Shown here: piece after piece, positions 6,810 through 41,979 of the stretch
Numbering within the stretch: position 1 is the first letter of the stretch
Layout: every line of letters starts with the position of its first letter
NCBI GenBank assembly: GCA_964581775.1
Contig: CAZOQA010000002.1
Coordinates: 85,125-149,124, forward strand
Direction: 5' to 3'
Length of the DNA: 64,000 nucleotides
Source of the DNA: an uncultured Thermoplasmatales archaeon
GTDB taxonomy: Archaea; Thermoplasmatota; SW-10-69-26
Position numbers and translations under genes: made by a program
Notes under the pieces: generated by a model
Told to the model about the DNA's origin: nothing
What the model saw: the letters and a program-made list of their open reading frames with translations, nothing else
Databases searched by the model: none

Positions 6810-6926
6810 ATGCACGGGCAGCGGGTCGAGGCGTGTTGGCGGTGCGGGCTAGGGTTCCGGACGGCTGTGACGCGCTGCGAGAAGGTATGCCCGAACTGCG
6901 GATGGCGTGCCAGCTGTCACGACTGA
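6810..6926 (+). CDS. possible 38-aa zinc-ribbon mini-protein
   Basis: 'MHGQRVEACWRCGLGFRTAVTRCEKVCPNCGWRASCHD' carries CxxC...CxxC. It overlaps the upstream candidate starts of the methyltransferase in another frame. Very short, so weak. Confidence 0.3.
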   Translation: MHGQRVEACWRCGLGFRTAVTRCEKVCPNCGWRASCHD

Positions 6927-8050
6927 CCGCCCGGGACCGGTTGCTTGATAACGCGATCCCTGCTTGGGGACTCGTGCGGACCGAGCACCGGATCGTGCAC
7001 GGCGATGCTCGCCGGTTGGCCTCGGTGGAGAAGGAAAGCGTCGAACTCGTCGTCACGTCCCCCCCGTACCCGATGGTGGAGATGTGGGACGAGCTCTTCG
7101 CGAGGCTGGAACCCCGCGTCGGCGACGCTTTGCAAGCCGGGGACGCTCAAGCCTCGTTCGAAGCCATGCACCGCGTGCTGGACACGGTCTGGGAGCAGGT
7201 CCAGCGCGTGCTCGGGCCGGGCGGGATCGCGTGCATCAACGTGGGGGATGCGGTGCGACGCATGGACGGGACCTTCCGCGCGTTCCCCAACCACGCGCGC
7301 ATCCTGGACGCGTTCCAGAAGCTGGGCTTCGATCCGCTGCCGGACATCCTGTGGCGCAAGCCCACGAACAGCCCGGCCAAGTTCGTCGGGTCCGGGATGC
7401 TGCCCCCCAGCGCGTACGCGACGCTCGAGCACGAGTACCTGCTCGTGTTCCGCAAGGGCTCGACGCGGCGCTCGTTCGAGCCGAACGCGACGCGCCGCTA
7501 CGAGGCGGCGTTCTTCTGGGAGGAGCGCAACGACTGGTTCTCGGACGTGTGGACGAACGTGCAGGGCACCCTGCAGGCGCTCGACGGGGACGATCAGCTT
7601 CGCGAGCGCTCGGCCGCGTACCCGTTCGAGGTCCCGTACCGGTTGATCAACATGTACTCCGTGTACGGGGACACGGTGCTGGACCCGTTCTGGGGGACAG
7701 GGACCACGACGCTGGCCGCGATGGTCGCGGCTCGCGACTCCGTGGGCGTCGAGCTCGAGGAGGGCTTCATCGAGCGCTTCCACGAGCAGGTCGAACGCGT
7801 CCCGGGGCTCTCTGGCGCGGTGCTCGATGAGCGGTTGGACCGCCACCGCGCGTTCGTCCAGGAGCGACGCGACCAGGGCAAGCCCCCCTCGTACGAGTCC
7901 CAGGCCTACGGGTTCCCCGTCATGACGAAGCAAGAGACTCGTCTCAGGTTGTACGGCAGCGACCAGGTCGAGCGCACCGAGGAGGGCTACCGCGTGATCC
8001 ACCGGCCCGTGTCGACCGAGAAGGCCCTCTCGGCCTCCACGGACGCCTAG
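6902..8050 (+). CDS. beta-class DNA methyltransferase (N4-cytosine/N6-adenine; SPPY type)
   Basis: Motif IV 'VVTSPPYP' lies near the N-terminus and motif I 'VLDPFWGTGTTTLAA' near the C-terminus, which is the beta-class order. Start uncertain (6887, 6902 or GTG 6974). No endonuclease gene adjacent. Confidence 0.85.
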   Translation: MACQLSRLTARDRLLDNAIPAWGLVRTEHRIVHGDARRLASVEKESVELVVTSPPYPMVEMWDELFARLEPRVGDALQAGDAQASFEAMHRVLDTVWEQVQRVLGPGGIACINVGDAVRRMDGTFRAFPNHARILDAFQKLGFDPLPDILWRKPTNSPAKFVGSGMLPPSAYATLEHEYLLVFRKGSTRRSFEPNATRRYEAAFFWEERNDWFSDVWTNVQGTLQALDGDDQLRERSAAYPFEVPYRLINMYSVYGDTVLDPFWGTGTTTLAAMVAARDSVGVELEEGFIERFHEQVERVPGLSGAVLDERLDRHRAFVQERRDQGKPPSYESQAYGFPVMTKQETRLRLYGSDQVERTEEGYRVIHRPVSTEKALSASTDA

Positions 8051-8376
8051 TCTTCGAACTGGAACCCCGGCTCGGGCGGTCGCTCGTCGGGGTCCACGCG
8101 CCCGGCGGCGTGCTCGATGGCGCTGTGCAGCATCACGCGGGCGCTCGTGACGCGCTCGTCCTCGAGGCGCTGGCGAGAGAGCTCGACGCATGCCCAGGCT
8201 TTCTGGGGAAGCGAGTCCTCCTCCACGTTGACCTCCTGGGGGTCCACGCTCCCGGTGGGGTGGGTGCGCATGACGGTGTCAAGGATCGAGCGGCACGCAT
8301 CGAGCCGCTCGCGCTCCAGCGCGTCCAATGCGTCCTCGAGGTCGCTCACGTCCGGAGGGTCCATCGGGCTGGCCAC
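8047..8376 (-). CDS. hypothetical small acidic protein
   Basis: 109-aa ORF. Its stop overlaps the methyltransferase stop (CTAG at 8047-8050). Lies 33 nt downstream of the wHTH gene on the same strand. No recognisable motif. Confidence 0.4.
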   Translation of the reverse strand: MASPMDPPDVSDLEDALDALERERLDACRSILDTVMRTHPTGSVDPQEVNVEEDSLPQKAWACVELSRQRLEDERVTSARVMLHSAIEHAAGRVDPDERPPEPGFQFED

Positions 8377-8409
8377 GGGGGGCCTCCCGTTTGAAGTTGG
8401 CCTCGGATC

Positions 8410-8898
8410 CTACGCGGACTCGACCCAGCCGGCCCCGTCGCGCGTGATCCGCACCTGGTCCTCGTCGGCTTCGATGAGGCCGGCCTCGTCGAGGTACTCG
8501 CGCGTGCGGACCTCACGGTCGCCCTCGAACCCCAGCTCTTCTTGCACCTCGCCCAGGTCGACCTGGACCGCCGTGTCGCCGTCCACGAGCTCGTGCAGGG
8601 TGCGCACGTACGTGCCGCGCTCCTCCCGGCGCTCGTCGACCTCCTCGCTTTGCCCCTCGTCGAGCCGCGTCTCCTCGACGTGATGGATCGCCGGCAGGCG
8701 CAGGCTGAAGGACTCCTTTCCCTCGTCCGCGATCAGGCCCCGGTTGATCAGGTCCCGCCGGACGCTTCGCTTGCGGTCCTCGGAGAGGCCCAAGCGGTCC
8801 TCCACGTCGCGGCGCGAGAAGCTCCGTTGGGGGCTCCCGTCGACCTCGTCGTACGCGAACTCAAGGTACTGGAGGGACGCCTGTTGTGCGTTGGCCAT
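8410..8898 (-). CDS. hypothetical protein with two winged-helix-like repeats
   Basis: ORF 8410-9684 trimmed to ATG 8898 ('MANAQQASLQYLEF'). Two similar segments, '...RRDLINRGLIADEG' and '...REYLDEAGLIEADEDQVRITRDG', suggest tandem wHTH domains. Confidence 0.5.
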   Translation of the reverse strand: MANAQQASLQYLEFAYDEVDGSPQRSFSRRDVEDRLGLSEDRKRSVRRDLINRGLIADEGKESFSLRLPAIHHVEETRLDEGQSEEVDERREERGTYVRTLHELVDGDTAVQVDLGEVQEELGFEGDREVRTREYLDEAGLIEADEDQVRITRDGAGWVESA

Positions 8899-9006
8899 TC
8901 TGCACGACCCCCAGGCGGGGGGTCCGCGATGAACGTTCCGGCCGCGGCCCCGACCTTGCGCATCTCCGCAGGGTTCAAGGCGAGCGTGCCCGTGGCGGGG
9001 GCGAAG

Positions 9007-9783
9007 ATGGGGACTCGTGACGAGGCAACCAGGATCGACCGGATCGTGGCCCTGGACCTGGAGACCACGGGCCTGGACCCGCGCGGGGACCGCATCGTCG
9101 AGTTCGCGCTGATCCTGCTCGATCACGACCTGGACGAGATCGACCGCTGGAACGAGCTCGTCCACCCCGGATGCGCCATCCCCGAGCAAGCCACGAACGT
9201 GCACGGGATCACGGACGACGACGTCCGCGATGCGCCCCCGTTCAAGGAGGTGGCGCCCGTCGTGCAAACCCTGCTCGACGACGCCGTGCTCATGGCGTAC
9301 AACCACGAGTTCGACCTCGAGTTCCTGGACGCGGAGCTGAAACGAGCCGGCGGGCCGGGGATCCAACCCCGCTCGCCCACCATCGACCCCATGCTGCACT
9401 TCCGAGAGCACCACCCGGACACCTCGAACCGGCTCGAGCACGCCGTGCAACACTACCTCGACGAACCCCTCGACGGAGCCCACCGGGCCCTCCACGACAC
9501 GGAAGCCATGGTGGAGGTCTTCCGAGCCATGCGACGCGTCCACCCCGCCCTCTCCCAGGATCTGGCCTCCGCCATCGTGGAACCCCGCGACTGGGTGGAC
9601 GAGGAGAAGAAGCTCTACGCGGACGAGGATGGGACCGTCCGCTTCGGCTTCGGCAAGCACGAGGGCAAGCCGGTGCGCGCGCACGCCTCGTACGCCGAGT
9701 GGATGCTGGATGGGGACTTCCCCGAGGAGACGAAAGCTCGCCTGCGCGAGATCCTCGCGCGCTCCACTGCCAAGAGAGCCTAG
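9007..9783 (+). CDS. DEDDh 3'-5' exonuclease (DnaQ/epsilon-like) with C-terminal DUF3820-like tail
   Basis: Exo I 'VALDLETTG', Exo II 'MAYNHEFDLEFL', Exo III 'HRALHDTEA'. The tail 'FGFGKHEGKPV...YAEWML' resembles DUF3820. Start at ATG 9007, or at ATG 8929 which would leave only 30 nt to the divergent gene. Confidence 0.8.
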   Translation: MGTRDEATRIDRIVALDLETTGLDPRGDRIVEFALILLDHDLDEIDRWNELVHPGCAIPEQATNVHGITDDDVRDAPPFKEVAPVVQTLLDDAVLMAYNHEFDLEFLDAELKRAGGPGIQPRSPTIDPMLHFREHHPDTSNRLEHAVQHYLDEPLDGAHRALHDTEAMVEVFRAMRRVHPALSQDLASAIVEPRDWVDEEKKLYADEDGTVRFGFGKHEGKPVRAHASYAEWMLDGDFPEETKARLREILARSTAKRA

Positions 9784-10306
9784 GGCTGCGATGAACGGGA
9801 AGGATCGAGAAGGAAGAGGGGGACGGGGTCGAACCGCGTTGCAAGCTCGCCGTGGCTTGGAGGCTTACACAACAACCCAACAGGGCGTCAAGTTGCTTCG
9901 GCGAGACAGGGACCCCGCACCTTCCCCTCGGCCCCCTCAACCCTGTCACGCGTTATCAATCTTGTCGACGTGTCGTGCAACGCTTGCATCCGGGTTACGG
10001 GAGGCTCGGTTGGGGCCTTCGACGCTTGTCCGGTCTCGGCATCGGATCCGGACGACGATCAGGATCACCGACCTCGTGGCTCCAAGGAGCGCTGGATCTC
10101 CGACGCATCGTGAGCAACACTCCCACCTGTCCGGTCGGCACCCTAAAAGGTCTGGGATACCTCACACGGGGTGGTGGGTCTGTCGACGGGGACGTGCGAT
10201 TGGGACTGGTTCCAGCGCTGTGCCCGCATGTTGACAGGCCGGGCAACACGTCTGCGGACTGCGGTTTCACGGCCCGATGGTCCCCGAGGCCAGCGGTGCC
10301 GGAACG

Positions 10307-10313
10307 CTTATAG
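10307..10313 (+). promoter_or_regulatory. TATA-like box (CTTATAG) for the 10335 gene; leaderless or short-leader geometry
   Basis: The only AT-rich heptamer in the vicinity, centred about 25 nt upstream of ATG 10335. The same GCTTATAG octamer recurs upstream of ATG 17531. Confidence 0.45.
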
Positions 10314-10334
10314 CCGGACGTGGTATCCTCTAAC

Positions 10335-10823
10335 ATGGAGGCGAAGGAGTTGAACATCCGCTTGACGGTACTTCTGGGAGCTTTCTTGTTGACCGCCACC
10401 TCCGGCACGGCCCTGGCAGGACCGGGGGATCCCTTGAAGGGGATTAACGGGAGCCTTACCGCCTCGGGTGCCGCGGACGGGTCCGGGGACGCCGAGTGTC
10501 AGACCCCCCTCGAGGAGGGTGCGGCAGACCCCACGGTGGGCGACATCCATGAGGCTGAGTGCGGAGTCGGTGCCCAAGCAGGACCAGGCGATCCCTTGAC
10601 GGGGATCAACGGGAGCCTGTCGGTCCACGCGGACAACCATGGCGACTGCCAGGCGGGCAGCTACGGACACTCCGGCGGCGACGGGACTGCGGGTCCGGGC
10701 ATGGGCACCCAAGCGGGCTGCTCAGTCCAAACAGGGATGGGGGTCGTCTCGTGCGAGGCAGGCGCGCACCTTGTCGTGCTCGACCCGCCAAGCCCCACCG
10801 CCGGTTGCGTGGGGCCCGGATAG
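10335..10823 (+). CDS. secreted Cys-containing repeat protein (hypothetical)
   Basis: Signal-peptide-like N-terminus 'MEAKELNIRLTVLLGAFLLTATSGTALA'. Duplicated module 'AGPGDPL(K/T)GINGSL' spaced 54 aa apart. Confidence 0.5.
   Translation: MEAKELNIRLTVLLGAFLLTATSGTALAGPGDPLKGINGSLTASGAADGSGDAECQTPLEEGAADPTVGDIHEAECGVGAQAGPGDPLTGINGSLSVHADNHGDCQAGSYGHSGGDGTAGPGMGTQAGCSVQTGMGVVSCEAGAHLVVLDPPSPTAGCVGPG
10417..10618 (+). repeat. intragenic 40-nt direct repeat pair (10417-10456 and 10579-10618)
   Basis: caggaccgggggatcccttgaaggggattaacgggagcct versus caggaccaggcgatcccttgacggggatcaacgggagcct, offset 162 nt and in frame. Confidence 0.7.
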
Positions 10824-10892
10824 GTCCAAGGCGATTCACGGGGGCCCGGTCCCACGGGGCCCAGGCAACCACCCCCGCGGCCGCCCCCTGAG

Positions 10893-10900
10893 CGTTAAAC
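10893..10900 (+). promoter_or_regulatory. weak TATA-like box (CGTTAAAC) upstream of GTG 10926
   Basis: AT-rich patch about 29 nt upstream of the start codon, in otherwise GC-rich sequence. Confidence 0.3.
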
Positions 10901-10925
10901 CCCGCACACCGCCTACACCCGCCCC

Positions 10926-11342
10926 GTGTCCGAGTGGCGCCTTTACCCCACGCTGATCTCCTACTGGGAAAGGCAAGGCTACCACGTCGCCTCCCAGGTC
11001 ACGGATCCCCGAGGCGCCCGCTTCGAGGTGGACGTGGTCGCGTTCACCCCCCGCCTGGACGACGTGCGCATCACGGAGGTCAAGCTCGAACCCAGCCCCT
11101 CCTTCCGCGCCCAATGCCTGGACCGCCTCAGGCTGGCCCCCCGCGTGTACGCCGCCCTCCCCGCTCACCACGCCGACCGCATGATGGACCTGCTCGACCA
11201 CGCCGACGCCGACACCCTCGGCCTGCTCGCCGTCCACGCAGACCTCGTCGAAGAGACGAAACCCGCCACGCCCGCCCACGAGCACCGCCAGGAAGGCAAA
11301 GCCTGCGTGCTTGAGCGAGCCCTCCGCTCCACGCTCGCCTGA
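10926..11342 (+). CDS. PD-(D/E)XK nuclease-fold protein, MmcB-like
   Basis: 138 aa. 'FEVDVVAF' + 'RITEVKL' give the D...ExK core. The downstream blocks 'RVYAALPAHH' and 'DTLGLLAV' match the layout I recall for MmcB-family DNA repair proteins. Confidence 0.6.
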   Translation: MSEWRLYPTLISYWERQGYHVASQVTDPRGARFEVDVVAFTPRLDDVRITEVKLEPSPSFRAQCLDRLRLAPRVYAALPAHHADRMMDLLDHADADTLGLLAVHADLVEETKPATPAHEHRQEGKACVLERALRSTLA

Positions 11343-11398
11343 CCTGCGAACCCGAAGAACCCAACCGCTAAGCGTTGAACGCCCCTTCACCCCGGCCC

Positions 11399-11791
11399 AT
11401 GGCGGACGAGACCGAGGCCCAGCTCGACGTGCTCGACGTGCTCGACGACGAGATCGAGATGTTGCTTGCAAGCCTCGACCAGAAACAGGACCCCAGCGCG
11501 TACACGCAAGGCCAGATTGCGTACCTCGAAGCCCTCCAAGACCGCCTCACGGACGTCCCCCTGGGCGCCCTCCCGCGCGATCTGCTCGAGGAGACCGCTC
11601 ACGAGCTAGGGCTCACCTTCCAAGACGGCGCCCCCGAAGACCCCATCCGCGACGACCAAGACGCCGGCATCCTCGCAGCCTGGGCCCTTTGCCTGGGCTT
11701 CGTCGAAGGCGCAGCCCGAGGCGCCCAAGCCGCCGCCGACGCCCTCGACGCCTACAACGCAGGCCGCGACGAACGCGGCATCCCCCGCTGA
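11399..11791 (+). CDS. hypothetical strongly acidic protein
   Basis: ORF 11375-11791, start taken at ATG 11399 ('MADETEAQLDVLDVLDDEIE'). Helical and acidic with no known motif. Sits between the MmcB-like and AddB-like genes. Confidence 0.45.
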   Translation: MADETEAQLDVLDVLDDEIEMLLASLDQKQDPSAYTQGQIAYLEALQDRLTDVPLGALPRDLLEETAHELGLTFQDGAPEDPIRDDQDAGILAAWALCLGFVEGAARGAQAAADALDAYNAGRDERGIPR

Positions 11792-11858
11792 CCCGTCCGA
11801 ACGGACATCGAACAGACCGCCCCGAAGCCTCATCCCCCACCACGCCCTGGCCTCCCCC

Positions 11859-14528
11859 GTGGCCGTCCGTCGAGCCCTCACCATCGAAGAGCTCCAACAA
11901 CGAACCCGCCACCACGACCGCGTGATCACGCCGGACGCCCCCCTGGCCCTCGCCCTCAACCGACGCACCCAACAACCCCGCCTCGGGACGCACGCCGCCA
12001 CGCCCAAAAACCTCGCCACGCAAGGCATCCCCCGCCCCGACAAACGACGCCTCTTCCACACCCTCACCCAAGAAACCCCCCTCTCCTTCAAGGAAGCCGC
12101 CACGCGCCTGGACCTGTGCCTCTCCGCCTGGGAACACACCGGCCGCCGCGACGGCATCCTCGACTGGGACCGCTACGACGTGCCCGGCACCCACCACGTC
12201 CTCGACACCCTCGCCACAGAAGACAGCACCCACCACGCCCGCGAAGCCTACACCCTCCCCCCCGACCAAGACATCGCCATCGTCGACTACGACGCCCTGA
12301 CCCCCCTCGACCGCACCATCCTCCCCCCCGACACGAGGACGCGACACGGCGCCCAACAAGCCCCCCACGTCGACCTCATCGAACCCCTCGCACACGAACC
12401 CACCCAACTGCCCCCCTTCCGCATCCTCCCCTCCCAAGCCGCCATCACGAGCACCCTCGCCGACACCGTCACCCCAGACAACGCCAACCAGATCGGCATC
12501 GTGCTCGACCCCAACGGCCCCCTTCGCCCCCTCGTCGAATCCCTCCTCGATGCCCAAGGCATCCCCTACCAAACCCAGGACACGCTCAACCAGGACCCCC
12601 ACCTCCGAAGCCTCCTGCGCGCCCTCCGCCTGGGTCTCTCCGAGACGAACCTCACGGGACGCGACGTGCGAGGTCTCCTGGCCACCATCGACAAGAAACC
12701 CCACCCCCGCACCGACCACCGTCTCCTGCCCGCCATCACCGACCCCCCCGTCCGGCGCCTTCGACGCCTCTGGAGCGACCTCCAAGGCGCCCCCCTCAAA
12801 CAAGCCCTCTCCGCGTTCGAGGACCTCGCCAACCGCTCGCTCCCCGAGACCCGCGCCCTCCTCGAAGACCTCGCCCTCCTCGACGACCCCCTCACGCAGG
12901 ACCTGCTCGACGCCCTCGACTTCTACCTCGACACGTTCACCATCGAGCACGACTACGAACGCGACGGCGTCCTCCTCGCCTCCGCCCTCGAGAACGCGTA
13001 CGTCGACCGCGCCCTCGTCCTCCACCTCGGCATGGATGCCTCCTGGACCCGACCCATGCCCGGGCACCCCTGGATCGACGACGAACACCACAAACAACGC
13101 AACCTCGCCCGCCTCGAACGCCTCCTCCAAGCCGGAACCACGACCGCGTACCTCGTCCAAGACACACGCCAAGGCAAACCCGTCTCCCCCTGCTTCCACC
13201 TCCACGAGCTCCTCGACGCCCGCTTCGAGACATTCAAGGACCTCGAAACCCAAGGCCTCGCCACCCGCCACGCCCCTCCCCGACGAGCCCCCCAGGAGGC
13301 CTCCTGCCCCTTCCCCCCCGGAGACCAAGAAGACGACCCCGGAGCCCCCGACCCTCCCACGCTTTCCCCCTCCACCCTCGACACGCTCGCGACGTGCCCC
13401 CGAGACTGGTACATGGACCAACTCGTCCACACCGTCCCCCGCCCCCACCTCGAACGAGGAACGCTCCTGCACGAGTTCGCCGAAACCTACGCCCGCCACC
13501 CCGACAAGATCGACCTCGACGACGACGATCAACTCGCCTCCCTCGTCGACCGCTGCCTGGAAGAGATCCGACCCTACGTCCCAGCAGAACGACACGCCCT
13601 TCACCGCACCGAGCTCCGCATCGCGCTGACCACCGTCGCCCGTTGGCTCGACGAGAACCCCCCCACCTCCCCCCCACCAGGAGGCTACGAGGGCCTCCCC
13701 GACGACAAACACCGCTCCCCCAACCGCATCGCCCAACACCTCGGTCTCAAGCTCGACGGGGACCGCACCGAGCGATGGTTCGAGAACCCCGATCTCGGGA
13801 TCCACGGAGTCGTCGACCTCCTCCACGGCCCCGCCCGCATCGTGGACTGGAAGAGCACCAAGAACCCCCCCTCCCTACGGGCCGCCATCCGCGCCGCCTG
13901 CCTCGACGACGACGCCGACCCGGACCTGCAACCCACCGCCTACCTCGCCCACCTCCGAAGCCAAACCACGCACGACTCCCTCGCCTGCACCCTCGTCCAC
14001 GTGCTCGGGAACAGAAACGACACCCTCCGAAGCGGCACGCCCGAGCCCTCCACCTGCACCGTACGATACCACGACCTCCCCTTCCAAGACTACATCGCCA
14101 CGCCCCACGCCTTCGAAGCCCTCACCCAGAAGAACCACAACCGCCAACGCGTCCTCAACAACCTCGGCGAAGACGCCTGGGCCCGCCTCATCCAAGACGC
14201 CCCCCTTCCCCCCTTCGAGGACAAAGACCACGCAAGCGAGCACGAGCTCAAAGACCGCCTCGGAGAGCAAGCCCGCGCCGCCATCGGGGAATCCTACAAG
14301 TACATCGAGAAAGGAGCCCGATCCACGCTCCGCGAACTCGTCAACCTACGAAACCAAGCCCTCTACGAGGAAGACCTCGACGCGTTCGAGAACCATGTCC
14401 AAACCACCAAACAGAACCTCCACGCCTGGCTTCGAACCCGCTTCCCCGTCGACTGCGACGATCTGACCTCGACCACGCACCCGGACCTGATCCTCCGACG
14501 CCTTGGACGCTCGCCCCCGCCCCCGTGA
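11859..14528 (+). CDS. AddB/AdnA-like protein: degenerate helicase-like N-region + RecB-family PD-(D/E)XK nuclease
   Basis: 889 aa. No Walker A motif seen. C-terminal nuclease blocks 'LATCPRDWY', 'HGVVDLLH', 'RIVDWKSTK', 'QPTAYLAH' (QxxxY). No CxxCxxxxxC iron-sulfur motif. Confidence 0.75.
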   Translation: MAVRRALTIEELQQRTRHHDRVITPDAPLALALNRRTQQPRLGTHAATPKNLATQGIPRPDKRRLFHTLTQETPLSFKEAATRLDLCLSAWEHTGRRDGILDWDRYDVPGTHHVLDTLATEDSTHHAREAYTLPPDQDIAIVDYDALTPLDRTILPPDTRTRHGAQQAPHVDLIEPLAHEPTQLPPFRILPSQAAITSTLADTVTPDNANQIGIVLDPNGPLRPLVESLLDAQGIPYQTQDTLNQDPHLRSLLRALRLGLSETNLTGRDVRGLLATIDKKPHPRTDHRLLPAITDPPVRRLRRLWSDLQGAPLKQALSAFEDLANRSLPETRALLEDLALLDDPLTQDLLDALDFYLDTFTIEHDYERDGVLLASALENAYVDRALVLHLGMDASWTRPMPGHPWIDDEHHKQRNLARLERLLQAGTTTAYLVQDTRQGKPVSPCFHLHELLDARFETFKDLETQGLATRHAPPRRAPQEASCPFPPGDQEDDPGAPDPPTLSPSTLDTLATCPRDWYMDQLVHTVPRPHLERGTLLHEFAETYARHPDKIDLDDDDQLASLVDRCLEEIRPYVPAERHALHRTELRIALTTVARWLDENPPTSPPPGGYEGLPDDKHRSPNRIAQHLGLKLDGDRTERWFENPDLGIHGVVDLLHGPARIVDWKSTKNPPSLRAAIRAACLDDDADPDLQPTAYLAHLRSQTTHDSLACTLVHVLGNRNDTLRSGTPEPSTCTVRYHDLPFQDYIATPHAFEALTQKNHNRQRVLNNLGEDAWARLIQDAPLPPFEDKDHASEHELKDRLGEQARAAIGESYKYIEKGARSTLRELVNLRNQALYEEDLDAFENHVQTTKQNLHAWLRTRFPVDCDDLTSTTHPDLILRRLGRSPPPP

Positions 14529-14533
14529 GAAGC

Positions 14534-17476
14534 ATGCCCAGCGATCAAACCGCGACGCGCCAACCCGCACCCGCCATCGCCCCCCTCGACCCCAACGAAG
14601 CCCAACAGGACCTCATCACCACGCTCGAGGGCCCCCTTCTGTGCGACGCCGGTGCCGGCACCGGGAAGACGTTCACCATCGCGCACCGCTACCTGCGCAT
14701 CCTCCAAGACCGAGACCTCGACCCTCAAGACGTCCTCCTGATCACGTTCACCAACAACGCAGCCGAAGAGATGCGAGAGCGCATCCTGCGCTTAGGAGGC
14801 GACCAGACCACGCCCACCCAGCTCCACGACGCCCCCATCTCCACGTTCCACGCTCTCGCCAAGCGCCTGCTCGAGCGACACGGCTTCCAAGCCCCCGCCC
14901 ACCTCGGCCTCGACGCGCGCCTGGCGCCCGGGTTCACCGTGCTCGGCGACGAGGTCCGCGAAACGCAGATCTTCGACCAGTTCCTGCGAACCTTCCAAGA
15001 CGAGCACCCCGAGCACGACACGATCCTCGCCTCCCTCGTGGACCCCTCCAACCTGCTCACCCTGCTCCACGAGATCGCCGCCAAAGGCATCCTGCCTACC
15101 ACGACCGGCTGGTACAGAGACTCCAAGTCGATGCTTCTCGGGGACGAGAACGCGTTCTTCGAGGCGTTCGAAACCGCCAACACGCCCCGCAATGGGACCC
15201 AAGCGCCCGCCCGCAAGCGGTTCTACGACGCTGCTCGCGGGAAGCTCTTTTTCCCACCCACCCGGGACCGCGACGATGCCACGGACGGCAACCGCATCGA
15301 CCCCCAAGCCGTCCACGACGCCTGGCAAGCCCCCCGCGAGGACCTTCTCGCGTTCGTGCACGACGTCTACGTCGAGTACCTCGAGCACGCCATCCACCGC
15401 AACCAGCTCAACTTCCAGTTCCTCCTCGTGCTCGCGCTCGTGCTCCTCATCGAGGACGACGACCTGCGCGAACGCGAACAGTTCGACTACGTCATGATCG
15501 ACGAGTTCCAGGACACCAGCGAGATCCAGCTCCAACTTGCCCTCCTCTACGCCGCTGAACCCAACCTCTGCTGCGTCGGCGACTGGAAGCAATCCATCTA
15601 CAGCTTCCAATATGCAAGCGTCGACAACATCCTCAACTTCGACGACCGCGTCCAACGATACGCCCAGCGCCTCAACGCCGACCGCGACCGCGTCCCCCCA
15701 GCCACGAAGCTCACCCCCGCGCAACGCATCCACCTCACCGAGAACTACCGATCCACCCAACCCCTCCTCGACGTCGCCCCTGACGCGCTCGTCTGCCCCG
15801 CCACGCAACGCGAAACCCTCGACGAGGACGCCATCCAAGACGCCATCACGAACCTCCAAAGCCGAACGCCCACCGACGAAAGCCGCATCCAAACCCTCCT
15901 CTGCGACGACGAACCCACGAACGTCCTAGCCCTCATCCAGACCATCGTCGACAACCCCCGCTACGCCCTCCACGAAACCGCCACCGTCGACGGCGACAAG
16001 ACCGTCCTCACCCGGCCCCCCACCTACGACGACATCGCCGTGCTCACCCGGACCCGCCGCTTCGCGCTTGAACTCCAAGAACAAGCCACCCTCCATGGCC
16101 TCCCCGTCGCGTTCGAAGGAGGCGTCGAGGTCTACAAGACCGACGAAGCCAAACTCCTGCTCGCCTGGCTGCGCCTGCTCGAGGACCACCGCTCCCGCCG
16201 CGGCTGGGCCGTGATCCTCGAACATGCCGGGTTTACGCTCCCGCAAGCCCGGCGCATCCTCGACGAACACGCGCACCCCGACCCCATGACCGCGTTCCTG
16301 GCCCACCTCCGAGAGCTCCCCACACCCGGAGCCAAAGCACGGGCCATCTTCGAGGCCTACGACCTCTTCAACGGGACCACCGAGACGCTCATCGCGAACC
16401 TCCAACGCGCCTACGAAGACACGCGCTGCACGCCCGCTGAGCTCGTTCGCCTGATCGAAGACCACCACGAAGCCGGCACCGTCGAAGACGTCGACGACCA
16501 CCCCGGCGGGAACGTGACCACCGTGCAGACCATCCACGCCGCCAAAGGCCTCGAGTACCCCATCGTAATCCTCGCCGACGTCAACCAAGGACGCTTCCCC
16601 TCCACCGGCGGCGGATACCCCACGCGCCTGCGCTACGACGAGACCCTCGGCCTTCGCCTGACCAAGCGCTTCATCGACGAGACCGGCACACCCCCCTACG
16701 TGTACGACGACTGGGCGACAACTCTGCTGAAAAGCGTGCTCGACACCTCCCAATACGACGAAGAACGGCGCCTCCTCTACGTCGCGCTAAGCCGCGCCAA
16801 ACAACACCTTCTCATCACCGCGCAACAAGGACGATCAAGCCGCTTCTTCGAAGCCCTCCCCCCCGACCCCATCGACTACGACGCCGATCCCTCCCCCACC
16901 GAACACGCTCCGAGACACCACGCGCCCCTCACGATCGAGACCCCCGACCAGCGCGTCCCCCAGACGCTGCCCGTCGGGGAGCTTACCCCCGAGCCCCAGA
17001 TCCCCGAAGGGGGCCGAGGGAAACGCTTCGGGAAACAGATCCACGCCTACGCCGCCCGCGCGGCCCGAGACCAGACCCTCGCGCCCACGAACCAACACCA
17101 AACGAACGTCGACCGCATCCTCGAAGACTACCGATCCCGCGGGTTCCAGCTCGACCCCGAGGTCGACGCCCGGCTCCCCCTCGCGCTCGACGAGCACGAC
17201 ATCATCCTAGAAGGGAAGATCGATCTCGTCGCCCGCGGCGACGGACGCATCGAGATCCTCGACTGGAAGACCACGCCGCCCGGAGCCGGGCTCCGCGCGT
17301 ACCGACGCCAAGTCGGCCTCTACGCGGCCATCGTCGAACGCGCCCACCCCGACAAGACGGTCCAAGGATGGATCGTGTACACAGACGACGGAAGCAGGGA
17401 ACCCGTCCAGCCCCTCGGCGCCGATGAGCTCGAAGAGGCCATCCGGCAAGCCCTCGACGCCTCTCCACCCCCGTGA
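14534..17476 (+). CDS. UvrD/PcrA-type SF1 helicase fused to C-terminal RecB-family nuclease (AddA-like)
   Basis: Starts at ATG 14534, 6 nt after the previous stop; it is the in-frame tail of ORF 12116-17476. Helicase motifs 'DAGAGTGKT', 'MIDEFQDTS', 'VGDWKQSIYSFQYA', 'TENYRST', 'IHAAKGLEYP', 'LLYVALSRAK'. Nuclease 'IDLVARGDGRIEILDWKTT', 'YRRQVGLY'. Confidence 0.9.
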   Translation: MPSDQTATRQPAPAIAPLDPNEAQQDLITTLEGPLLCDAGAGTGKTFTIAHRYLRILQDRDLDPQDVLLITFTNNAAEEMRERILRLGGDQTTPTQLHDAPISTFHALAKRLLERHGFQAPAHLGLDARLAPGFTVLGDEVRETQIFDQFLRTFQDEHPEHDTILASLVDPSNLLTLLHEIAAKGILPTTTGWYRDSKSMLLGDENAFFEAFETANTPRNGTQAPARKRFYDAARGKLFFPPTRDRDDATDGNRIDPQAVHDAWQAPREDLLAFVHDVYVEYLEHAIHRNQLNFQFLLVLALVLLIEDDDLREREQFDYVMIDEFQDTSEIQLQLALLYAAEPNLCCVGDWKQSIYSFQYASVDNILNFDDRVQRYAQRLNADRDRVPPATKLTPAQRIHLTENYRSTQPLLDVAPDALVCPATQRETLDEDAIQDAITNLQSRTPTDESRIQTLLCDDEPTNVLALIQTIVDNPRYALHETATVDGDKTVLTRPPTYDDIAVLTRTRRFALELQEQATLHGLPVAFEGGVEVYKTDEAKLLLAWLRLLEDHRSRRGWAVILEHAGFTLPQARRILDEHAHPDPMTAFLAHLRELPTPGAKARAIFEAYDLFNGTTETLIANLQRAYEDTRCTPAELVRLIEDHHEAGTVEDVDDHPGGNVTTVQTIHAAKGLEYPIVILADVNQGRFPSTGGGYPTRLRYDETLGLRLTKRFIDETGTPPYVYDDWATTLLKSVLDTSQYDEERRLLYVALSRAKQHLLITAQQGRSSRFFEALPPDPIDYDADPSPTEHAPRHHAPLTIETPDQRVPQTLPVGELTPEPQIPEGGRGKRFGKQIHAYAARAARDQTLAPTNQHQTNVDRILEDYRSRGFQLDPEVDARLPLALDEHDIILEGKIDLVARGDGRIEILDWKTTPPGAGLRAYRRQVGLYAAIVERAHPDKTVQGWIVYTDDGSREPVQPLGADELEEAIRQALDASPPP

Positions 17477-17482
17477 AGCCCC

Positions 17483-17510
17483 AGGGGCTTGCTTATAGGT
17501 AGAAGCCCCT
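17483..17510 (+). promoter_or_regulatory. 8-bp hairpin with a TATA-like CTTATAG in its loop, between the AddA-like stop and ATG 17531
   Basis: AGGGGCTT 17483-17490 pairs with AAGCCCCT 17503-17510. The loop gcttataggtag contains GCTTATAG, the same octamer as at 10306-10313. Confidence 0.4.
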
Positions 17511-17530
17511 AGGCCCGCGGCCACGAAGGC

Positions 17531-17866
17531 ATGACGATCCCCAAGCGCGCCATCAAGATTAGCGGCCACGCCCACCACCGAGCCGTCTCCCGGTTCGGAT
17601 GGACCAAACCACAAGCCACCCGCTCCATCCGCGAAGCCATCCAGCGCGGCGACTGGTACCCCAGCCCCGAGGACCCCCACGAGTACCTCGTGCTCCACCG
17701 CGTCCAAGGAACCCAAACCTGCATCATCTGCGCCATCCAAGACGACACCGTTCACGTTCGCACGCTCTACCCTCTCCGCAACCCCGGCCAACTCCACGCG
17801 TACAAGCAACAGGACGGGCCCTTCACGAGCCGCCAGATCCAACGCCACTACCGGGTCGGGGACTGA
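17531..17866 (+). CDS. hypothetical small basic protein (weak DUF4258-like N-terminus)
   Basis: 111 aa. 'IKISGHAHHRAVSRFGWT...IREAIQRG' loosely recalls the H-x3-R start of DUF4258-type small proteins. Last gene of the AddAB-like block. Confidence 0.4.
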   Translation: MTIPKRAIKISGHAHHRAVSRFGWTKPQATRSIREAIQRGDWYPSPEDPHEYLVLHRVQGTQTCIICAIQDDTVHVRTLYPLRNPGQLHAYKQQDGPFTSRQIQRHYRVGD

Positions 17867-18679
17867 CTACGCGTCGAACACCCGGCCCAAGACGCGATCC
17901 TGGACCTTCGCCGGCAACCACGACGCCAGCACCGCCCCCGCCCACGCCCACCACCCGACCGGGACGCGCGCCGGAACCCACCGACCCGTCAACGCGCGAA
18001 TGATCGCCCCCGCCACCTTCTCCACGGGAATCTCGCCCGCCGCCTCCAAGATCGACTCGTCGATCCGCTCGTACGCGGACCGATGCGGGCTCGCCTCCAC
18101 GTCCACATACCGATCCAGAAGATCCCCCGCTCGGTCCTGGAATTCCGTCCGCACCGGGCCCGGCTGCACGATGCACACCTCCACGCCCGCCTCCCGCAGC
18201 TCGAACCGAAGCGCGTCCGCGACCGCCTCCAACGCCCGCTTGCTCGCGCAGTACGCGCCGTAATAGGGGACCGGCGTGATCGCGGCCTGGCTCGACACGA
18301 ACACCACTCGCCCCTTGGCGGATCGCAACGCCGGGGAAAGCTGCCGGGTCAGCTCGATGGGGCCCGTCACGTTCACATCGAACTGCTGCTGCCACGCGCC
18401 CGGCCCCAGATCCTCGATCGCGCCGGGGATGCCCACGCCCGCGTTGTGCACAAGCCCGTCCAACGTGGACTCGATGCCGACCTCTCGCGCAGCCTCTTGG
18501 ATGCTCTCGAGGCTTGAGAGGTCCAGCCGCACGGGCGTGCAGCCCCGTGCTTTGAGCTCTTCGAGGTCCCCGTCTCGCCGGGCCGTCGCGTACACGGTCC
18601 AGTCCTCCGCCAACAGGCGCGTCACCGTAGCCTCCCCGATTCCGCTTGTGGCCCCCGTGAGCAAGACGCGCCGACCCAT
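17867..18679 (-). CDS. short-chain dehydrogenase/reductase (SDR)
   Basis: 'LLTGATSGIGEA' (TGxxxGxG), 'HNAGV' and the catalytic 'YCASKRALE' (YxxxK). Its stop abuts the convergent gene's stop (TGA/CTA at 17864-17869). Confidence 0.9.
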   Translation of the reverse strand: MGRRVLLTGATSGIGEATVTRLLAEDWTVYATARRDGDLEELKARGCTPVRLDLSSLESIQEAAREVGIESTLDGLVHNAGVGIPGAIEDLGPGAWQQQFDVNVTGPIELTRQLSPALRSAKGRVVFVSSQAAITPVPYYGAYCASKRALEAVADALRFELREAGVEVCIVQPGPVRTEFQDRAGDLLDRYVDVEASPHRSAYERIDESILEAAGEIPVEKVAGAIIRALTGRWVPARVPVGWWAWAGAVLASWLPAKVQDRVLGRVFDA

Positions 18680-39604: not shown

Positions 39605-39729
39605 GCGACCCCACGACCTGGGGTCGCGCGCTTAAGCCCTTCGCAACTGCACCACCACGCCCCTCGCACTGGAACTTTCACGCCTCCCCCATGGAGGTGG
39701 TATCCCCACGGAGCACGAACCAGGGCCCG

Positions 39730-41979
39730 ATGAGCCAGCCCGACGCCAGCTTCCCGCTGGCCCACGCCGAGCCCCGCGACTACCAGACCCGCATCGCTCG
39801 CGCCTGCCAAGGACGCAACAGCCTCGTCATCCTCCCCACCGGCCTCGGCAAGACGATCGTGGCCGCGCTCCTCGCAGCCCACCACCTCGACCACGACGAG
39901 CGCGTGCTCGTGGTCGCCCCCACGCAAGCCCTCGTCCAACAGCACGCCGACGTCTACCAAGACCAACTCCCCCACGCGGACGTGGCCACGCTCACCGGGA
40001 ACACGCCCCCCCAAGAACGCACCGACGCCTGGACACGCGGCGACATCCTCGTCGCCACGCCCCAAACCGCCCGCAACGATCTCACCCAAGGCACCCTGGA
40101 CCCTCGCGACTGGGGCCTGCTCATCGTCGACGAAGCCCACCGCGCCACCGGGAAACACGCCTCCACGGAGGTCGCAGCCGCCTTCCGCAAGCACGGGACC
40201 CCCCTCCTGGGCACCACCGCCTCCCCCGCCGAGGACCCCGACGCGATGCAAACCGTGATCGACAACCTCGCCATCCACCACATCGAAGCCCGAACCGAAC
40301 GCGACCCCGACGTGGCCCCCTACGTCGACCCCGTCACCATCGACTGGATCCGCATCAACCTCCCCGAAACGCTCCAAGAAGCCTCCTCCGAGCTGCGCAC
40401 CCTCGCAGAATCCTACGTGGACGAGCTCCGCTCCATGGACCTCTACCGATCCCGCTTCGTCAAACGAGGCGACCTCCTCACCCTGCGCAAGCGCCTCCAG
40501 AACGAACAGGCCCCCGACGACGCGCGCACGCACGTGACCGCCGCCCTGCGCGCGCTGCACGCGATCGAGCTCGTCGAGACCCAGAGCACGACCGCCGCCC
40601 GCGCCTACCTTGACACGCTGGCCTCCTCGCGCTTGGCCGAGCATCCCTCCTTCCAGCACGCCAAGCGCCGGCTGGAAAGCTACCTCGGCGAGCACCCCAA
40701 GATGCGCCGGTGCGCCCGCAGCCTCGAGGAGGAACTGCGCCAGGACGAGGACGCCAGGGGCCTCGTCTTCGTGAAGACCCGGGAGACCGGTCGAGCGCTC
40801 CTGGAGACGCTCGAGGACGAGACCAGACTGCGATGCCAGGTGTTCTTCGGCAGATCCGGCGAGGACGGTCTGACCCCGGACCAGCAGCGCGAACGGCTCG
40901 ACGCGCTCCGGGACGGGGACGTCGACGTGCTCGTGGCCACCAGCGTCGGCGAGGAAGGCCTGGATGTCCCCTCCGTGGACCTCGTCGTGTTCTACGAGCC
41001 CGTGGCAAGCGCCGTACGAGCCGTGCAACGCAAAGGCCGCACCGGCCGAGACGGGCCCGGGCACGTGCTGGTTCTCGTCACGCGGGGCACCCGCGACGAG
41101 GCAGCGTACTGGTCCGCGGCCAAGCGGGAGCGGCGCATGCGACGCTTGGTCCGCCAGCTCCAAAGCACCTCCAAGAAGGCCCCCGAGCCCTCGGTCCGCT
41201 CGAACCCGTCCGCGTACGAAGAGGCCACGTGCTCGGACTCCGATCCCACCGTGCTCGTGGACCACAAACATGCCAACGGTCCCCTGGCGCGCCGCCTTCG
41301 ACGCGAAGGCATCTCCATCGAACCCGCCCGCGTTCCCCACGGGGACGCCGTGCTCTCCTCGCGCACCGTCGTGCACCACACGACCGTGCCCGAGGCGGAA
41401 AAAGCCCTCCAGGACGAGACGCTTCCCCGCCAGATCCGGATCCTCAAACGAGGGTTCCCCTCCCCGGTCCTCATCCTCGAGGGCGATCCCTTTGCAGATG
41501 CCGCCCAGTCGGGCCTTCTGGGCGAGTTGACGGAGCTTGCCTCCCGGTGGGGGGTCCCCATGATCCAGGCGCACGATCCCCGCCAGACCGCGAGCCTGAT
41601 CGCGCAGCTGGCTCGACGCGAGAACCAGCAGGCCGGGGCCCCCACGAGCCGGGACGGGACCGGCGGACGCTCGCTGGCTCACAACCAGCGGTTCCTCCTG
41701 CAAGCGCTCCCCAACGTCTCCCAGCGCCTGAGCGACCGCTTGCTGGAAGCGTTCGGGACGCCCGGCAACGTGCTCGGGGCCAGCGAGGACGAGCTCGCAA
41801 GCGTGCCCGGGATCGGCCCGAACACAGCAACGGCCATACGCAGGGTGCTGCATGCCGACCCCGAGACGCCGTGGCGGAACGGAACCTCGACGTCCACCCC
41901 AGCCCCGGGGACCACAACGCGCTCTGGTACTGGGCCCAAGAGGTCGGCTTCCTCAAGGTCGCGCGCAACTACACCCTGA
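39730..41979 (+). CDS. hef: Hef-type helicase with ERCC4-like domain and C-terminal HhH2
   Basis: 'LPTGLGKT', 'LIVDEAHRATG', 'GTTASP', 'QRKGRTGR'. ERCC4-like region 'VLVDHKH...GDAVLS...VVHHTTVPEAE'. HhH2 'LPNVSQRLSDRLLEAFG...VPGIGPNTATAI'. Start at 39730 or 39691. Confidence 0.9.
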   Translation: MSQPDASFPLAHAEPRDYQTRIARACQGRNSLVILPTGLGKTIVAALLAAHHLDHDERVLVVAPTQALVQQHADVYQDQLPHADVATLTGNTPPQERTDAWTRGDILVATPQTARNDLTQGTLDPRDWGLLIVDEAHRATGKHASTEVAAAFRKHGTPLLGTTASPAEDPDAMQTVIDNLAIHHIEARTERDPDVAPYVDPVTIDWIRINLPETLQEASSELRTLAESYVDELRSMDLYRSRFVKRGDLLTLRKRLQNEQAPDDARTHVTAALRALHAIELVETQSTTAARAYLDTLASSRLAEHPSFQHAKRRLESYLGEHPKMRRCARSLEEELRQDEDARGLVFVKTRETGRALLETLEDETRLRCQVFFGRSGEDGLTPDQQRERLDALRDGDVDVLVATSVGEEGLDVPSVDLVVFYEPVASAVRAVQRKGRTGRDGPGHVLVLVTRGTRDEAAYWSAAKRERRMRRLVRQLQSTSKKAPEPSVRSNPSAYEEATCSDSDPTVLVDHKHANGPLARRLRREGISIEPARVPHGDAVLSSRTVVHHTTVPEAEKALQDETLPRQIRILKRGFPSPVLILEGDPFADAAQSGLLGELTELASRWGVPMIQAHDPRQTASLIAQLARRENQQAGAPTSRDGTGGRSLAHNQRFLLQALPNVSQRLSDRLLEAFGTPGNVLGASEDELASVPGIGPNTATAIRRVLHADPETPWRNGTSTSTPAPGTTTRSGTGPKRSASSRSRATTP

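Follow-up and report, generated by a model that had tools for sequence, protein, structure and literature searches.

A candidate AddAB-type helicase-nuclease gene pair in a Thermoplasmatales archaeon and its relatives in hypersaline archaea

Domain content of the g3-g4 gene pair

A cluster of five genes, designated g1 to g5, lies on the forward strand at positions 10926-17866 of a 64,000-nucleotide stretch of contig CAZOQA010000002.1 from an uncultured Thermoplasmatales archaeon; this whole stretch is called the window throughout. Two of the genes, g3 (11859-14528, +) and g4 (14534-17476, +), are probably the subunit genes of an AddAB-type enzyme for processing DNA ends, a helicase-nuclease that would combine one motor with two nucleases, a reading to which we assign a probability of about 0.7. 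A preliminary description of this DNA had listed five co-oriented, closely spaced open reading frames (ORFs), and all five are present, each displaying the GC pattern by codon position that is characteristic of coding sequence (GC3 of 0.83-0.89 versus GC2 of 0.43-0.46). The GC content is ~68% throughout the window, and the pair locus is typical in this respect. Between the g3 stop codon and the g4 start we measured 5 nt rather than the 6 nt given previously. The closest homologues come from metagenome-assembled genomes (MAGs) of halophilic Thermoplasmatota, for example 'Thermoplasmatales archaeon SW_10_69_26'.

The product of g4, 980 amino acids (aa) in length, combines a UvrD/PcrA-type 3'-5' motor of helicase superfamily 1A (SF1A) with a C-terminal RecB-family nuclease and represents the AddA-like subunit. 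Pfam assigns to it UvrD-helicase (E 2e-55), UvrD_C (6e-31) and PDDEXK_1 (2e-8, residues 860-955). The helicase core (14594-16828, +; approximately residues 21-765) features motif I as GAGTGKT, Ia as TFTNNAA, II as DEFQD, III as GDWKQSIY, IV as ENYRS, V as TIHAAKGLE and VI as LYVALSRA. In the nuclease domain (17111-17443, +; approximately residues 860-970) the series IDLV ... ILDWKTT ... YRRQVGLY contains the hDxK and QxxxY motifs, and a weak match to the Cas4 model TIGR00372 covers residues 885-970. Both the translation and the Pfam matches agree with the earlier account of this protein as a UvrD/PcrA helicase with every SF1 motif and a RecB nuclease of its own.

For the 889-aa product of g3, PDDEXK_1 is the sole Pfam match (residues 501-758, E 5e-19), and together with the alignment it defines a RecB-type nuclease domain (13359-14138, +; approximately residues 501-760). 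The characteristic residues of this domain are E638, D653, the pair D663-x-K665 and the pair Q691-x3-Y695, all six of which are invariant in an alignment of 21 homologues. The nuclease motifs proposed for the two proteins thus hold up in profile alignment, PDDEXK_1 being matched in g3 as well as in g4. The N-terminal half of g3 (11859-13268, +; approximately residues 1-470) is an SF1-helicase-like region that appears to be inactivated. Neither a Walker A nor a Walker B motif was found in the 21-homologue alignment, in which a conserved DAPLALALNRR occupies the strand-loop-helix position, and the Walker A pattern GxxxxGK[ST] occurs in 0/140 full-length members of the g3 family. The combination of a RecB-type nuclease with a missing Walker A motif, which had drawn attention to this protein at the outset, is therefore a real feature of it.

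A confident AlphaFold (AF2) model of g3, calculated from the family alignment (mean pLDDT 85.9), was compared with the PDB using Foldseek. The best matches are five chains of Bacillus subtilis AddB, aligned over the full length (E ~1e-13 for 4ceh_B), followed by mycobacterial AdnA (4e-11) and RecC (3e-8), with plain helicases (UvrD, PcrA, Rep) ranking behind them. At fold level, the model supports a description of g3 as a motor-dead, helicase-shaped scaffold joined to an active-looking RecB nuclease, in other words as an AddB-like protein, and it is at the level of the predicted fold only that the kinship with AddB becomes visible. The full-length match of g3 to AddB chain B and the domains of g4 together support the single-motor, dual-nuclease pair of AddB-like and AddA-like proteins that had been proposed from the preliminary description.

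Two observations on composition may be added. The g3 and g4 proteins are unusually rich in histidine, with 44 His in g3, and nowhere in the window does C exceed G more strongly than on the strand that codes for these two proteins (GC skew of -0.41 to -0.26 at 12001-18000).

Distribution of the pair and of the iron-sulfur ligands

Among the five genes, g3 and g4 are the only conserved unit. In every related locus with sufficient sequence, the g4 homologue follows immediately after the g3 homologue, and such adjacent pairs were found in ~30 species of Halobacteria, in Nanohaloarchaea, in two other Thermoplasmatota lineages, in Ignavibacteria and in Methanococcus maripaludis. Scanning genomes with the AddB-like alignment returned at least 36 loci, a lower bound given that the scan used a single peptide pattern; three of these are in Thermoplasmatota and the remainder in Halobacteria, among them Haloferax profundi, Halarchaeum, Natrinema, Halomicrobium, Haloarcula, Haloplanus, Halorussus, Halobacterium and Natronorubrum. 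An exhaustive HMMER search with the g3 family yielded 537 cluster representatives (282 at E <= 1e-30), with named distant members in Candidatus Poribacteria, Ignavibacteria and M. maripaludis (WP_011976415.1). The corresponding search with g4 produces thousands of UvrD-like matches, the best 120 of which are full-length proteins of 940-1000 aa with 40-58% identity from many haloarchaeal genera and Thermoplasmatota. No gene record was found for the helicase of the window itself when its exact sequence was looked up. The partner helicase of the Ignavibacteria AddB-like protein scores 431 bits against g4, far above PcrA (139 bits) or AddA (67 bits), which argues that the two subunit families travel together. 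The pair appears to belong to a Walker-A-less AddB lineage that is also present in some bacteria (Ignavibacteria, Poribacteria) and in M. maripaludis. A different arrangement was observed on a Candidatus Poribacteria-type contig (L049; related loci are numbered with the prefix L), where an AddB-like gene with an iron-sulfur (Fe-S) motif (8001-10646) has no UvrD-type helicase gene adjoining it; after it come an outer-membrane-type gene and one for a 774-aa protein without a Pfam match.

Near its C-terminus g3 contains a segment (RFPVDCDDLTSTTHPDLIL; 14439-14498, +) that aligns with the CxxCx5C Fe-S motif of its bacterial and methanococcal relatives and in which the three cysteine ligands are replaced. 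The CxxCxxxxxC motif was not found in g3, where the aligned positions are D/S/L; the Poribacteria sequence 'CDECNYSDIC', for instance, aligns with 'DLTSTTHPDL' in the window protein. Among 140 full-length family representatives, a C-terminal CxxCx3-8C is present in 44, all of them outside a clade of halophile sequences, and it occurs in 0/94 members of that clade. The lack of the Fe-S staple, recognised earlier in the window protein, is accordingly a property of 94/94 halophile-clade members. The Fe-S-bearing part of the family holds named members from Poribacteria, Ignavibacteria, soil metagenomes and M. maripaludis. A vestige of the first cluster ligand is C513 of g3, within 'CPRDWY'; this upstream 'CP[RK]' cysteine is kept in Thermoplasmatota sequences and is a serine in Haloprofundus and Nanohaloarchaea.

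In a fast, approximate neighbour-joining tree of the family, rooted at its midpoint, a 94-tip clade without the Fe-S motif (comprising the window, Haloprofundus, a Thermoplasmatota MAG and Nanohaloarchaea) stands against a 47-tip clade in which 44 of the 47 members carry the motif. The Thermoplasmatota fall within a 58-tip sub-clade whose one named haloarchaeal sequence is that of Haloprofundus. In the simplest reading, the Fe-S cluster was lost once and the cluster-less form then spread among hypersaline archaea, and its occurrence in Halobacteria, Nanohaloarchaea and halophilic Thermoplasmatota is compatible with horizontal exchange in hypersaline habitats. Horizontal acquisition of the locus, which had been suggested before, is plausible for the pair, given its bacterial relatives and the single clade across three unrelated halophilic archaeal lineages.

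The small genes and the surrounding locus

The small protein encoded by g1 (10926-11342, +; 138 aa) has a predicted PD-(D/E)XK fold and, like those of g2 and g5, finds no match in Pfam, NCBIfam, PADLOC or PHROGs. It has only 10 database homologues, all in the same halophilic Thermoplasmatota lineage, and the family conserves E34-x-D36 and E51-x-K53. The AF2 model of g1 (pLDDT 92.7) shows the fold of a PD-(D/E)XK nuclease, and Foldseek returns as its best match 3dnx (TM 0.72, E 1e-7), a documented PD-(D/E)XK structure (PMC3045609), followed by SfsA, NucS, Can2 and Hjc. The g1-family profile has no match among PDB sequences, and Pfam, including the MmcB-like PF06319, matches none of the 11 family members even at E <= 10. 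Of the MmcB-like nuclease described initially, the nuclease fold is thus supported and the MmcB-like Pfam match is missing. We take 3DNX (SPO1766) to be a representative of the MmcB-like/DUF1052 family (PF06319), and it is the compact PD-(D/E)XK fold that g1 has in common with it, whereas g1 and its 10 homologues are without a Pfam match.

The neighbouring g2 (11375-11791, +) encodes an acidic protein, 138 aa long if translation begins at a TTG codon and 130 aa if it begins at the ATG at 11399. Homologues of g2 were found in L028 and L045 only, and their alignment favours the longer form over the 130 aa given before. The strong acidity ascribed to this protein is genuine (pI 4.05), and many proteins of the window reach pI 4.1, with a median of 5.06. 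Being ordinary for the window, such acidity is best read as a salt-in proteome signature and provides no evidence of DNA mimicry, and the idea of g2 as a DNA mimic was rejected on the grounds that acidity is proteome-wide. Downstream of the pair, the 111-aa protein encoded by g5 (17531-17866, +) is basic, as described, with a pI of 9.9. Its N-terminal 'SGHAHHRAVSRFGW' and its size, judged by eye, presumably point to a resemblance to DUF4258/BrnT-like toxin proteins, which no profile match supports. A short GC-rich inverted repeat (AGCCCC.GGGGCT) lies just past the g4 stop codon, in the interval 17477-17530. The same interval contains, by eye, a TTATAGG at 17493-17499, ~35 nt upstream of the g5 ATG, and A/T-rich, TATA-like elements were likewise seen by eye ahead of g1 and g2. 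These elements suggest separate archaeal promoters and transcription units for g1, g2 and g5, and g5 probably has a promoter of its own.

Housekeeping-type genes flank the locus, encoding an RsmB-type methyltransferase, an aldo-keto reductase, an acyl-CoA synthetase, a short-chain dehydrogenase (SDR), a HAD-family phosphatase, an N6/N4 DNA methyltransferase and a DEDD exonuclease. The DNA methyltransferase (6902-8050, +) and the DEDD exonuclease (8593-9783, +), which is RNase T/DnaQ-like and has an N-terminal extension of ~150 aa, lie ~1-4 kb upstream of the cluster. No match to a restriction endonuclease alongside the methyltransferase was found among the neighbours scanned. In the 1.1 kb immediately upstream of g1 (9784-10925) no gene was confidently called; a 167-aa ORF in this interval (10320-10823, +) has a hydrophobic N-terminus by eye and no family match. 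Scans of the window for tRNAs and Rfam families revealed no RNA genes, including none in 9784-10925. Archaeal markers elsewhere in the window are Hef (39691-41979), RadA (43768-46245, -) and aRF1, the first two of which had been named in the preliminary description. An intein that carries a LAGLIDADG homing-endonuclease domain splits the RadA gene, in which Pfam matches Rad51 in two stretches in addition to Intein_splicing and LAGLIDADG_3.

Repair, defence and known systems

The preliminary description had treated the five genes as a fixed association, and one way to explain the locus is indeed a module in which an MmcB-like nuclease, an acidic mimic or inhibitor and a basic protein act with the AddAB-like pair. 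The genes are co-oriented and tightly spaced in the window, and the fold of g1 is that of a nuclease. In L028, as in the window, g1 and g2 immediately precede g3, and in L045 they precede it with a TFB gene separating g2 from g3; a homologue of g5 is found directly downstream of the helicase gene, although only in L003, L004, L005 and L010. Beyond these loci the arrangement dissolves. In L003, g1 lies 6.6 kb from the pair, across opposite-strand genes; L046 and L050 have g1 apart from the pair; a metagenome scan for g1 returned a single locus, without linkage to the pair; and L001 contains the pair and none of g1, g2 and g5. No homologue of the three small genes was found in ~30 loci of Halobacteria, Nanohaloarchaea, Methanococcus or Ignavibacteria, and no locus besides the window has all five genes together. 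As, in addition, proteins as acidic as g2 are usual in this proteome and TATA-like elements precede g1, g2 and g5, we regard a five-gene module as highly improbable, and a five-gene operon was rejected for inconsistent synteny. On present sequence comparisons, g1, g2 and g5 appear to be lineage-specific neighbours, loosely syntenic among close relatives within the halophilic Thermoplasmatota, rather than components of the system.

A more serious alternative concerns the purpose of the pair, which might act mainly as an anti-virus or anti-plasmid module that degrades linear or cleaved foreign DNA, perhaps downstream of McrBC or BREX, instead of in recombinational repair of the chromosome. Most halobacterial copies are located in low-GC stretches (48-60% GC, with ORFs in these islands called as the longest ORFs), and McrBC directly adjoins the pair in L016, L019 and L027. 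BrxA/BREX adjoins it in L007 and lies within ~4 kb in L015 and L039, OLD, MCM and Mrr are near it in L006 (Halorubrum), and one copy is on plasmid p5 of Haloarcula salina. In M. maripaludis (L051; JACDUL010000002.1, 1-13476), whose AddB-like protein keeps the Fe-S motif, a Gabija-like combination of OLD-family nuclease and UvrD helicase comes first, then McrBC, then the AddAB-like pair and, last, a DinG/XPD-like helicase. Family scans of ~195 ORFs neighbouring the pair, counted as per-ORF aggregates apart from the loci named here (L023 being the remaining one individually recorded), identified BrxA (3), McrBC (3), DISARM-/Hma-like helicases (2), DpdE (2), Mrr (2), type II restriction enzymes (3), PbeA (1), an OLD/AriA-like ATPase (1) and TnpB (5). 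Defence roles have also been proposed for UvrD-Cas4-like fusions by Hudaiberdiev et al. 2017 (PMC5704561), and the reported lack of AddAB-like genes in Haloferax volcanii (see below) would fit an accessory gene. On the other hand, the same scans revealed no recurrent third partner, most neighbours being unrelated housekeeping genes or genes without a family, and both in the window and in Ignavibacteria the adjacent pair sits amid housekeeping genes. PADLOC has no match for g3 and only generic UvrD-type models for g4 (GajB, DRT helicase), without their partner genes, and no copy of the AddB-like protein was found on the IMG/VR viral contigs scanned. Horizontally acquired genes, moreover, tend toward variable islands regardless of function, and repair and defence are not exclusive, as bacterial RecBCD and AddAB serve both. 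We therefore consider a mainly defensive role possible, though on balance unlikely, and retain the reading of g3 and g4 as an AddAB-type end-processing enzyme.

By analogy with B. subtilis and Bacteroides fragilis AddAB, a g3-g4 heterodimer would bind a double-stranded DNA end. The g4 subunit would hydrolyse ATP, move 3'-5' along the 3'-ended strand and cut that strand with its C-terminal RecB-type nuclease, while the motor-dead, helicase-shaped N-terminal half of g3 would guide and possibly scan the unwound DNA and the C-terminal nuclease of g3 would cut the 5'-ended strand. The outcome would be either degradation of linear DNA or production of a 3' single-stranded tail for RadA; the polarity of the strands, any regulation by a Chi-like sequence and the biological role are likewise extrapolated from the bacterial enzymes. 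Several results weigh against this reading. The g3-family profile retrieves nothing significant among PDB sequences (the best match is Cas4, E 0.17) and hence no AddB, AdnA or RecC, and NCBIfam, which includes AddB models, has no family for g3 at E <= 0.1. The Foldseek TM-scores of the g3 model are low (0.38), signifying domain-level rather than rigid global agreement, as is expected for multi-domain proteins that differ in length. For g4, all NCBIfam scores (pcrA 228, addA_Gpos 172 and recB 160 bits) fall far short of the equivalog cut-offs, as in 172 versus 708 for addA_Gpos and 132 versus 861 for addA_alphas, and the ranking among PDB sequences is PcrA (139 bits), UvrD1, UvrD, Rep, AdnB (92), AddA (67) and RecB, so that on both measures the motor is nearer to PcrA/UvrD than to AddA/RecB. 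The frequent defence genes around the pair in Halobacteria and Methanococcus may mean a role other than chromosomal repair. Finally, B. subtilis AddAB cannot bind DNA ends without its Fe-S cluster; the cluster is missing in g3, and end binding would have to differ. The 4Fe-4S cluster of AddB has as ligands one N-terminal cysteine and three near the C-terminus. It should be noted in this context that 'many', and not all, AddB proteins carry the cluster (PMC2887965).

The pair represents a type of enzyme already known and, from bioinformatics, already reported in archaea; among halophilic archaea it is widespread. Double-strand-break resection in archaea is usually described in terms of Mre11-Rad50 with HerA-NurA only. 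The abstract of Cromie's 2009 study reportedly mentions unexpected archaeal addAB genes, as well as subsets of AddB without a Walker A motif or without the Fe-S motif. A transfer of addAB 'even into the archaea' is attributed to Cromie 2009 in a passage of Reuter et al. 2010 (PMC2887965). The novelty in archaea that had been suggested for the pair thus largely falls away. A review of repair in H. volcanii lists no AddAB-like genes, and a 2026 preprint (bioRxiv 10.64898/2026.05.08.723854) describes RecBCD and AddAB as 'not present in archaea' and H. volcanii as without direct homologues; with dozens of haloarchaeal species carrying the pair, the general statement does not hold, whereas the one on H. 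volcanii is not necessarily contradicted. In the literature we found no experimental study or characterisation of any archaeal member. The interest that is left is modest and lies in an Fe-S-free, monophyletic clade of AddB proteins in three hypersaline archaeal lineages, frequently positioned in defence islands, and the clade-wide loss of the Fe-S staple amounts to a natural experiment on the purpose of the cluster. Several hosts are genetically tractable (M. maripaludis, Halorubrum, Haloarcula, Natrinema), and the questions raised include bacterial-style end processing in these archaea, Chi-like control and effects on virus defence or CRISPR spacer acquisition. One bolder proposal, speculative and in our estimate rather improbable, is that the Fe-S-free clade is a working archaeal counterpart of RecBCD/AddAB that destroys linear foreign DNA and switches at a Chi-like sequence to making 3' tails for RadA. 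If this were true, archaea would possess bacterial-style, sequence-regulated resection with self/non-self discrimination alongside Mre11-Rad50, and a source of spacer substrates for CRISPR.

Among known systems, the UvrD-Cas4-like fusions of bacteria and mesophilic archaea, which often occur in defence contexts, share an identical architecture with g4 (UvrD plus a pfam12705 nuclease), according to the sections of Hudaiberdiev et al. 2017 (PMC5704561) devoted to them. In those sections the fusions either stand alone or are linked to type III restriction-modification or Dcm/Vsr genes, with no mention of an obligate AddB-like partner, whereas here the partner is invariably adjacent. RecC, the third-best structural match of g3, is a motor-dead, helicase-like scaffold as well, but its nuclease-like domain is inactive, whereas the motifs of g3 are intact. 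This difference, together with the lack of a RecD-like gene beside the pair in the window locus and in the related loci examined, led us to reject membership in RecBCD. Mycobacterial AdnAB is a heterodimer of two UvrD-like/RecB-nuclease polypeptides, of which AdnA is the second-best structural match of g3 and AdnB reaches 92 bits against g4. ATPase motifs are kept in both AdnAB subunits; motor motifs are missing from g3, which is why membership in AdnAB was rejected.

The AddAB enzymes are the closest in layout. B. subtilis AddAB (PDB 3U4Q/4CEH) provides the best structural match of g3 (chain B, over the full length) and follows the same single-motor, dual-nuclease logic, but its AddB is ~280 aa longer, has the Walker A motif (a mark of the Firmicutes-type subset of AddB) and the 4Fe-4S cluster that are both absent in g3, and shows no detectable sequence similarity to it; its AddA is ~250 aa longer than g4, with a similarity of only 67 bits. 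B. fragilis AddAB functions in double-strand-break repair and can stand in for recBCD in E. coli; its AddB is short, with C674 and C946/C949/C955 as cysteines and VDYK as nuclease motif (PMC2887965). With this Walker-A-less AddB class the pair shares a two-gene operon and an A subunit composed of a UvrD-like SF1A motor and a RecB nuclease, and g3 shares the short length (~880-960 aa), the missing Walker A, the helicase-like N-terminal half and the C-terminal nuclease with hDxK; orthology is suggested here at the level of architecture only, B. fragilis AddB having been compared by its description. Bacterial and methanococcal members of the g3 family possess the same terminal CxxCx5C as described for B. 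fragilis AddB, whereas the halophile clade that includes the window has lost the three C-terminal Fe-S cysteines. As the architecture of the g3 family is that of a known AddB class (PMC2887965), the halophile clade would represent a cluster-less derivative of it.

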